Of a DNA stretch of 64,000 bases, positions 16,330 through 16,786 are shown in pieces (positions within the stretch are counted from its first letter, which is position 1; every line of letters begins with the position of its first letter). Origin of the DNA: an uncultured delta proteobacterium (lineage in GTDB: Bacteria; Desulfobacterota; Desulfuromonadia; Geobacterales; DSM-12255); assembly GCA_963810975.1 (NCBI GenBank), contig CAWEPN010000004.1:1157-65156 (forward strand). Direction: 5' to 3'. The notes beneath the pieces were generated by a model. The model was given only the letters and a program-made list of their open reading frames with translations. It was not told where the DNA came from and did not search any database. Both the position numbers and the translations under genes were made by a program.

Positions 16330-16786
16330 TTGAAACACAGAGCACACGGAGCCACAGAGAAAATCTATTTTGATTCTGAATTAACCGAATCATCATTGGT
16401 TGCGCGATTGAGGTTCATCGCACACTTGGGCCGGGTTTGCTTGAATCTGCATATGAAGAGTGTCTTGTTATGAACTTGATACGAAGCGGGTATTACCAGG
16501 TTGAGCGCAAAAAGATCTTGCCTGTCGAGCTACAAGGAGATAAACTTAGAGACTGGTTATCAGTCTTGATCTCTTGGTGGAGACAAGCGAGTTATCGTTG
16601 AGTTGAAATGCGTAGAAAAAATATTGCCGGTTCATGAGGCCAGACTTTTGACATATCTAAGAGTTGACGAGAGCTTGAAAACAGGATTTGCTTATCAACT
16701 TCTATCACCGGCTCTTAAAAGACGGCATCAGTAAGTATTGTTTACTGATTTTCTCTGTGTCTCAGTTGCTCTGTGTTTCAGAAAGG
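16330..16786. mobile_element. Full-length member of the CACAGAG palindromic element family, carrying a decayed GxxExxY gene between 35-bp inverted repeats
   Basis: Left inverted repeat TGAAACACAGAGCACACGGAGCCACAGAGAAAATC (16330-16364). The right inverted repeat at 16748-16786 reverse-complements to TGAAACACAGAGCAACTGAGACACAGAGAAAATC. A 380-bp insert lies between the arms. Confidence 0.7.
16384..16740 (+). pseudogene. GxxExxY-family (PD-(D/E)XK nuclease fold, PDDEXK_3-like) gene remnant; N-terminally truncated and frameshifted
   Basis: [29 protein letters not shown]...YQVERKKILPVELQGDKL...DLLVE(frameshift)[40 protein letters not shown]. A single missing nucleotide in TTGGTGGA-GACAAG restores [13 protein letters not shown]. 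Confidence 0.65.

Follow-up and report, generated by a model that had tools for sequence, protein, structure and literature searches.

An element at positions 16325-16779 of the stretch analysed here, a 64,000-nt window of contig CAWEPN010000004.1 from an uncultured delta proteobacterium, is a dead copy of a small nuclease gene. It occupies the loop of a long hairpin that separates the metabolic genes for methylmalonyl-CoA mutase and methylmalonyl-CoA epimerase. The gene belongs to the GxxExxY family, and genes of this family are nearly always packaged in such hairpins: arms built of short tandem repeats and the gene between them form one unit, family-wide and across many phyla. Comparison of orthologous sites reveals that the cassette is gained, lost and swapped, and that its cargo decays while its arms persist. 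The window element is probably a decayed copy of a compact, selfish and exchangeable cassette in which a GxxExxY gene fills the loop of a long hairpin. The cassette and its surroundings are as follows.

16325..16779, + strand: whole inserted cassette, 455 nt (GCATGTTTGAAACAC ... GTGTTTC), delimited on the basis of the empty orthologous site in locus L222
16326..16741, + strand: GxxExxY (PDDEXK_3, Cas4-like nuclease) pseudogene, with at least four frameshifts and an in-frame stop at the catalytic Asp
16331..16365, + strand: left arm, with terminal TGAAAC, three tandem 8-9-nt units CACAGAG-CA-CACGGAG-C-CACAGAG, then AAAATC
16747..16780, + strand: right arm, with GATTTT, three inverted units CTCTGTG-T-CTCAGT-TG-CTCTGTG, then terminal TTTCA
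16317..16330, unstranded: left outer extension of the inverted repeat (TTTAAAGGCATGTT), which pairs with 16781-16794, also in the minimum-energy fold
16781..16794, unstranded: right outer extension (GAAAGGACTTTAAA), host spacer with the Shine-Dalgarno-like AAAGGA of the epimerase gene
14666..16321, + strand: methylmalonyl-CoA mutase gene, upstream edge of the insertion hotspot
16795..17199, + strand: methylmalonyl-CoA epimerase gene, downstream edge of the hotspot

The two arms are indeed inverted repeats, as a first-pass annotation of this DNA had proposed. They are complementary at 14 + 13, or 27 of 27, positions outside the central unit, and 381 nt lie between them. The left arm (TGAAACACAGAGCA-CACGGAGC-CACAGAGAAAATC) is located inside the ancestral open reading frame (ORF), at about codons 3-13, while the right arm starts ~6 nt past the ancestral stop codon. 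The inverted repeat reaches outward to 16317 and 16794 (28 nt, 86% complementary), and its left outer extension is partly host sequence, containing the mutase stop codon TAA at 16319-16321. The arms are paired in both the predicted minimum-energy and centroid folds (z = -3.5). The extent of the insertion is clear from L222, in which TAAAG is followed directly by AGAAAGGACTTTAAAGTG, compared with TAAAG, the insert and AGAAAGGACTTTAAAATG in the window; an AAAGG target duplication, considered as a candidate, was dropped given the clean insertion seen against this empty site.

The frame-corrected translation of the insert matches TIGR04256 with 116.3 bits (cut-off 35; E = 9.5e-34) and PF13366 with 111.3 bits (cut-off 22; E = 4.5e-32), which confirms its assignment to the GxxExxY family; it is the single GxxExxY gene within the window. 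The state of the gene differs from the earlier description, according to which it had lost its first ~10 residues and carried one 1-nt deletion. The ORF opens at ATG 16326 (MFETQS...), with the codons at its start encoded by the left arm, and its frame changes at least four times, near 16345, 16390, 16546 and 16688. In addition, the Asp position of the GYRxD motif is replaced by a stop codon (GYQS-stop-SL), while the ELK motif is kept. These frameshifts and the stop at the catalytic Asp therefore identify the window gene as a well-decayed pseudogene. Homologues of 135-136 amino acids (aa) start with METQSNGATEK, METQRHRGTEK or MFETQSNGATEK, which is the translation of the arm, GAAACACAGAG-N-CACAGAG...; such arm-encoded N-terminal peptides, together with spurious small ORFs in arms, are annotation artefacts worth flagging.

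In the family alignment E27 of the GxxExxY motif, D67, E77, K79 and Y95 are invariant and Q91 is nearly so. Because these catalytic residues are invariant, intact GxxExxY proteins are likely active RecB/Cas4-type nucleases. The typical cargo, of ~123 aa, is a minimal Cas4/RecB-like PD-(D/E)XK nuclease, and a profile search (E up to 0.001) places 34,729 clusters at 50% identity in the family. A PDB sequence search returned no solved structure related to GxxExxY, and the defence-system models of PADLOC gave weak Cas4 similarity and nothing else. In contrast to Cas4 and RecB nucleases, GxxExxY proteins are half the size, have no Fe-S cluster cysteines and no CRISPR context, and fall outside known defence-system models. 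The top-scoring representatives (P0285-P0299) are 260-295 aa long with two tandem GxxExxY domains, and in at least one of them (P0286) the second domain has no ExK; this arrangement suggests that single-domain GxxExxY proteins may act as dimers. One C terminus in this set (..SSVVSSVSS) looks arm-encoded.

A protein-based scan of metagenomes provided 80 GxxExxY loci, 73 of them with both flanks available, and only 3 of the 80 had no arm at all. At 39 of the 80, a left-type arm lies just upstream of or overlaps the N terminus and a right-type arm lies 0-35 nt past the stop codon. An upstream arm is present in 54 of the 73 and a downstream arm in 48 of the 73, where shuffled flanks would lead one to expect 1.0 and 0.5. 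The arms are regular: of 57 left arms, 50 have exactly three units; the period is 8-9 nt, the consensus is C-R-C-N-G-A-G (variants CACAGAG, CACGGAG, CGCAGAG, CGCCGAG, CACGAAG and similar), and the median gap from the stop codon to the right arm is 10.5 nt. The arm terminus is usually TTCACC/GGTGAA, with TTGAAAC/GTTTCAA as a Geobacter/Planctomycete variant. Metagenomic relatives harbor an intact gene between matching arms at the same mutase-epimerase site (L004, with 84% epimerase identity, L001-L003, L114 and L128-L130), and the same is seen elsewhere, as in L022 from a Phycisphaeraceae genome, in which the arm is translated in another frame. In the 1.2 Mb of collected loci, a GxxExxY gene lies inside each arm pair spaced by more than 350 nt, and no other cargo was found between C-R-C-N-G-A-G arms, the apparent exceptions being antisense ORFs over GxxExxY. 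Thus, the link between these arms and a GxxExxY cargo, which the first-pass annotation had suggested and which would have fallen had no other genome paired the two, holds well beyond the window.

A minority of loci have another layout, in which the gene lies between whole hairpins (7 "-/+" and 5 "+/+" loci); direct repeats of at least 40 nt are found on both sides of the gene at 11 of 79 loci. In L011 the gene lies between two direct 139-nt hairpin copies that are 98.6% identical, and in L125 a complete hairpin precedes the gene and a right arm without partner follows it. Among more distant homologues the tandem units are of other kinds. The distant GxxExxY gene of L063 (2350-2930) lies between 94-nt direct copies, 97.9% identical to each other, of a repeat unrelated to the arms (..GTCTCTCGCAAAGCCGCTAAGATCGCCAAG), and the inverted arms of L023 are built of octamers of the CGCAACGG type; the GxxExxY family therefore associates with several repeat families.

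Several further observations concern individual loci. In L123 (9840-10940) and L125 (9870-10410), from Geotalea toluenoxydans and another genome, a GxxExxY gene is located between sbcD-like and sbcC-like genes, with arms of CACGAAG or CACTAAG units; the products of sbcD and sbcC are the subunits of a hairpin-cleaving nuclease. In L123 the last ~60 nt of the gene, together with a hairpin, are repeated three times in tandem. Between L141 and L154, which are apparently orthologous, the right arm alone is precisely present or absent past the stop codon, TGA being followed by TCCTCCGTGACTCCGTGTCTCCGTGGTGAATGA in L154 and by nothing corresponding in L141. Among 2.9 million viral contigs there were only 5 GxxExxY relatives (L216-L220); the arms of L216 are canonical, while in L217-L219 the flanking repeats are built of other tandem units (ATCAGCGna; GGTATTTAnAAT). 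With these 5 matches, phages are not an obvious vector.

Relatives of the window site, gathered via the epimerase protein, show the mutase-epimerase spacer to be a hotspot. It is empty in L222 (89% epimerase identity, 17-nt spacer) and in L213 and L215 (85%), and these empty sites contain no hairpin of any kind, which argues that at this site the hairpin arrived with the gene. In L211 (89%) and L223 (88%) the site is instead occupied by a second cargo family of equal architecture, a PF05635 "23S rRNA IVS protein" cassette (four-helix S23p/IVP; IVS, intervening sequence), flanked by tandem heptamers CAGGAGT/ACTCCTG. The decayed four-helix cassette of L212 (2243-2480) keeps only the last 90 nt of its IVP gene and the right arm, besides an expanded left heptamer array of ~14 tandem copies of CAGGAGT; arm repeats can therefore expand by slippage. 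A comparable remnant, the left arm and 40 codons, is left in L051. Inverted arms of tandem repeats surround PF05635 genes outside rRNA in L211 (2069-2480), L223 (1097-1414) and L053 (1750-2290), made of CAGGAGT units in L211 and of TATAAGGTn units in L053; the right arm of L211 encodes the C terminus of its PF05635 protein (..SILTPVS-stop).

L221 is the most instructive case. The epimerase protein of L221 is identical to that of the window, and the flanks are 97.7% (126/129) and 98.7% (460/466) identical. In contrast, from one arm terminus to the other identity drops to 60.8%, and the intact GxxExxY protein encoded in this interior differs from that of the window. The breakpoints coincide with the arm termini; two units remain at the start of the old left arm, and after them comes a new left arm in full. 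L221 thus shows cargo replacement within the bounds of the arms, for which insertion or recombination at an arm is the simplest reading. Between the window and L004 the arms outlast the cargo, with arms 82-88%, interior 65% and neighbouring coding sequence 77-84% identical. The possibility that one ancient, vertically inherited gene occupies this site was overturned by the empty, IVP and swapped-GxxExxY states found in close relatives.

The recurrence of the terminal 14-mer of the left arm (TGAAACACAGAGCA) is not due to chance: with up to 2 mismatches allowed, the window has 13 occurrences, compared with 0.54 expected. A further seven copies are 110-150-nt hairpins in intergenic spacers with folding z values of -3.7 to -7.3; the other copies are, as stated earlier, shorter than the element first delimited at 457 bp. 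An eighth hairpin has heptamer-like arms. All are unstranded and contain no gene.

4950..5066: gene-less hairpin of CAACTGAG/CAACAGAG units; z = -7.3
6483..6590: gene-less hairpin; z = -4.1
13750..13862: gene-less hairpin; z = -5.6; absent from the orthologous spacer of L004
19237..19387: gene-less hairpin; z = -5.5
20976..21115: gene-less hairpin; z = -3.7
23182..23335: gene-less hairpin; z = -4.1
38752..38896: gene-less hairpin; z = -5.9
14534..14630: gene-less hairpin with heptamer-like arms, ACAGAGA/CAGAGAA ... TCTCCTG (GAAACAGAGACAGAGAACACAGAG ... TTCTCCGTGACTCTTGTCTCCTG), in the thymidylate kinase-mutase spacer

The arms of the hairpin at 14534-14630 are closer to those of the L211 four-helix (PF05635, IVP) cargo than to the octamer arms, and with this hairpin three consecutive spacers of the operon each contain an element. 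Most hairpins lie between co-directional genes or downstream of them rather than at promoters. Those at 23182 and 38752 begin a few bases past a GC-rich stem-loop with a T-run (23130-23182 and 38700-38752), whose sequences, aaagccctcgaatattgagggctttttt and gccccgcagtaagctgtggggc, resemble intrinsic terminators. Searches against Rfam at gathering thresholds (whole window) and at E up to 1 (13.6-23.5 kb) matched the hairpins to no family; the sole Rfam match in the window is a cobalamin riboswitch (RF00174, 125.9 bits; 50004-50192, + strand), and the window has no rRNA.

Beyond the window, an arm-based scan of one genome per species detected at least 118 loci, in Geobacteraceae, Planctomycetota, Bacteroidota, Acidobacteriota, Nitrospinota, Gemmatimonadota, Chloroflexota, Cloacimonadota and others; the matches listed are mostly short hairpins with loops of 12-155 nt. 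Within one genome, short and loaded elements share subtype-specific termini and units. Arm spacing in the 1.2 Mb of collected loci is bimodal, with 51 pairs less than 150 nt apart, 38 at 350-500 nt and 4 between. In six-frame translations, hmmsearch found no GxxExxY remnant below E = 3 in 31 short-element interiors, and tblastn of the window's own short elements gave no GxxExxY match. Tandem hairpin arrays with constant ~20-nt spacers are present in L010 (4578-4925), L021 (2423-2928), L033 (233-813), L052 (2573-3353) and L087 (1766-2380); they occur in Pirellula, Ferruginibacter and Bacteroidia genomes and are reminiscent of clusters of bacterial interspersed mosaic elements.

The closest known system is the 23S rRNA IVS with an S23p ORF, which the window element resembles in architecture and from which it departs in location and cargo. 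Such IVSs, with an ORF for a four-helix bundle, are those of Coxiella, Leptospira and the Salmonella type. In Coxiella the IVS is closed by a 28-bp terminal stem, with three tandem heptamers ahead of the ATG and an S23p ORF in the loop; it is excised by RNase III and its ORF is decaying (PMC4990558). Both kinds of element are ~430-460-nt units with terminal inverted repeats that form a stem of ~28-35 bp, both have a 5' arm of three tandem 7-9-nt repeats (before the ATG in the IVS, and 8-9-nt units here), both carry in the loop a small ORF that decays while the stem stays, and both are sporadically distributed. Moreover, the PF05635 cassettes of equal build in L211 and L223 occupy the very same mutase-epimerase site. 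However, an IVS is located in helix 25 or 45 of 23S rRNA and carries S23p/PF05635 with GACAGAT units, whereas the window element lies in the mRNA spacer of an operon and carries a Cas4-like GxxExxY nuclease gene with C-R-C-N-G-A-G octamers; RNase III processing is known for the IVS, and the stem here is a predicted one. No 23S rRNA motif was found beside the collected cassettes, although this is a weak test.

The short hairpins themselves have probable precedents in Geobacter metallireducens. Aklujkar et al. 2009 describe paired sites of two classes, 24 pairs in class 1 (GTTGCTYN) and 21 in class 2 (TCTCCGTS), for which they proposed binding of IHF/HU or a global regulator and near which IS110/IS481 insertions lie at a fixed distance. 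Those sites and the arms described here are alike in being tandem octamers on opposite strands, with variable spacing, in intergenic DNA, a match that holds by the printed consensus only. By that consensus, the CAACNGAG and CACGGAGA arm variants fit, as do the window right arms, which read ...CAGTTGCTCTGTG... and TTCTCTGTG...., and L004, which reads CCGTTGCTCCGTTGCTCT, with the class 1/2 octamers. In contrast to our reading, the authors interpreted them as IHF/HU or global-regulator sites and drew no link to GxxExxY or to the IVS.

Other families of mobile repeats share some of these features. As with miniature inverted-repeat transposable elements (MITEs) and their parent insertion sequences (ISs), a long form with a gene and numerous short forms without one have terminal inverted repeats in common, at high copy density. 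In contrast to MITEs, there is no target-site duplication here, the long form bearing these ends encodes a nuclease and no recognised transposase, and the long and short forms share no sequence beyond the arms. Integron cassettes are likewise small promoterless ORFs that are bounded by imperfect palindromes and exchanged, and some loci here read hairpin-gene-hairpin. However, there is no integrase, no attI platform and no attC core (RYYYAAC / GTTRRRY), the termini being TTGAAAC/GTTTCAA or TTCACC/GGTGAA; the adjoining genes are those of metabolic operons, the cassettes lie dispersed over operon spacers, and usually one hairpin encloses the ORF. Systems of REPINs and RAYTs (hairpin-forming doublets of repetitive extragenic palindromic, REP, sequences and their associated tyrosine transposases) combine many intergenic hairpin-forming repeat doublets with few protein genes flanked by inverted copies. 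The resemblance lies in short hairpins alongside genes flanked by like, inverted repeats, and in targeting by IS110-family elements. However, the flanked gene here encodes a PD-(D/E)XK nuclease, not an HUH Y1 (IS200/IS605-like) transposase, the arms consist of tandem 8-9-mers and not of one REP palindrome, and GxxExxY occurs in many paralogues rather than as one copy per family, with a second cargo family besides.

These findings can be combined into a mechanism for a selfish, exchangeable cassette. The arms would delimit the element and also serve as favoured sites for landing or recombination, a role suggested by L221, the direct-repeat layouts, the tandem arrays and the targeting by IS110-family elements. 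The nuclease may recognise and act on the 8-9-nt repeat units, because C-R-C-N-G-A-G is conserved across phyla with GxxExxY and the four-helix cargo has other units. Since no promoter-like or terminator-like site is found inside the window cassette, it may be cotranscribed with the mutase-epimerase operon; the ~35-bp stem would then form in RNA and be cut by RNase III as in 23S rRNA IVSs, which would make insertion inside operons tolerable. By analogy with those elements, we consider the chances even that RNase III would process the cassette transcript. That the nuclease is the mobility enzyme is possible, although we lean against it, and the short hairpins would be non-autonomous relatives. 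In its widest form, which we advance tentatively, GxxExxY genes with three-unit arms may constitute unrecognised, phylum-spanning autonomous cassettes that move or recombine, with the nuclease recognising the 8-9-nt units to drive insertion or exchange into further arms, the gene-less hairpins as non-autonomous partners and the 23S rRNA IVS (S23p) as a sister branch.

Several findings weigh against this mechanism. No transposition event or circle junction was seen among the loci. The target-site duplications that the first-pass annotation had proposed to look for did not appear: the filled versus empty comparison with L222 permits 0-2 nt at most at the window cassette, and the short elements gave no signal above shuffled controls, tandem-array spacers excepted. 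GxxExxY is not a known transposase family and is catalogued as a family of unknown function. In L221 the arms may simply have provided short homologies for an ordinary homologous recombination event, and the retention of an intact gene at the site in several lineages also fits domestication. The architecture is not uniform, as ~10-15% of the genes lie between whole hairpins in direct orientation. Lastly, among 1303 stem positions the sense-strand mismatches comprise 51 G.U and 49 A.C pairs and 82 others; with no G.U bias, there is no signature of selection on an RNA helix as such, and the absent bias points to recognition of sequence rather than to such selection.

Other explanations differ in how the short hairpins relate to the loaded ones. 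The first-pass annotation took the short CACAGAG elements to be internally deleted derivatives of the longer unit, which, in a strict MITE-like form, would have been mobilised in trans by the nuclease. The subtype-specific termini and units common to loaded and empty elements within a genome speak for such descent, as do the retention of arms around decayed cargo in the window and the deletion intermediates L212 (arms and a 3' 90-nt stub of the sister cargo) and L051. Yet the 31 short interiors and the short elements of the window hold no gene remnant, only 4 arm pairs fall between 150 and 350 nt, and the expected target-site duplications are missing. Derivation of short hairpins from long ones is no more than plausible, and the strict form seems doubtful to us. 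Conversely, the short hairpins might be primary, self-propagating or host-maintained like REP sequences, with GxxExxY and S23p/IVP genes homing into or beside them and the gene-less copies as vacant targets. Such homing would account for the gene between near-identical direct hairpins in L011, the hairpin-gene-lone arm order of L125 and the 11 of 79 loci with direct repeats; L221 also resembles a new unit inserted into an old left arm, insertions of the IS110-family element ISGme8 in G. metallireducens keep a fixed distance to these sites, and short elements, which contain no gene remnants, far outnumber loaded ones. We nonetheless consider it unlikely, since at the majority of loci the gene fills the loop exactly, starting at or outside one arm and stopping against the other, which random insertion into loops does not predict; moreover, C-R-C-N-G-A-G units track the GxxExxY clade across phyla while IVP cargo has other units, and at the hotspot, where empty sites lack any hairpin, the hairpin came with the gene.

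There are two further alternatives. If the arms were host regulatory or architectural sites, bound by a global regulator or by IHF/HU, their association with the gene would be incidental or autoregulatory. The 24 + 21 pairs annotated as putative sites of this kind by Aklujkar et al. 2009, the missing G.U bias, which fits sequence-specific recognition of each unit by a protein, and the operator-like count of exactly three units per arm are compatible with this. It is nevertheless very improbable, given presence and absence between close relatives, the many phyla, the tandem arrays and cargo swaps bounded by arms; in addition, no regulator has been identified, and the sites lie mostly downstream of or between co-directional genes rather than at promoters. 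Chance juxtaposition, in which the arms are halves of two independent short elements around an unrelated pseudogene, was an objection that the first-pass annotation had itself raised, and the density of short elements (at least nine in 64 kb) lends it some initial appeal. It is refuted: the order left arm-gene-right arm recurs with intact genes here and elsewhere, and neither window arm has any other partner nearby.

We found no publication linking GxxExxY, PDDEXK_3, PF13366 or TIGR04256 to inverted-repeat arms, in a search that did not extend to most subscription journals or to database family notes. The earlier claim that the link is undescribed accordingly stands for the literature searched; gene-less hairpins (by consensus match to the sites of Aklujkar et al. 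2009) and the analogous rRNA IVSs, however, had already been described. The finding joins three separate observations, namely rRNA IVSs, the origin of which has been a question since about 1990, the Geobacter "global regulator sites", and the paralogous GxxExxY and four-helix families. It leads to the testable hypothesis that a new kind of mobile element colonises operon spacers, and hairpin packaging provides the first concrete biological context for the very large GxxExxY/PDDEXK_3 family.

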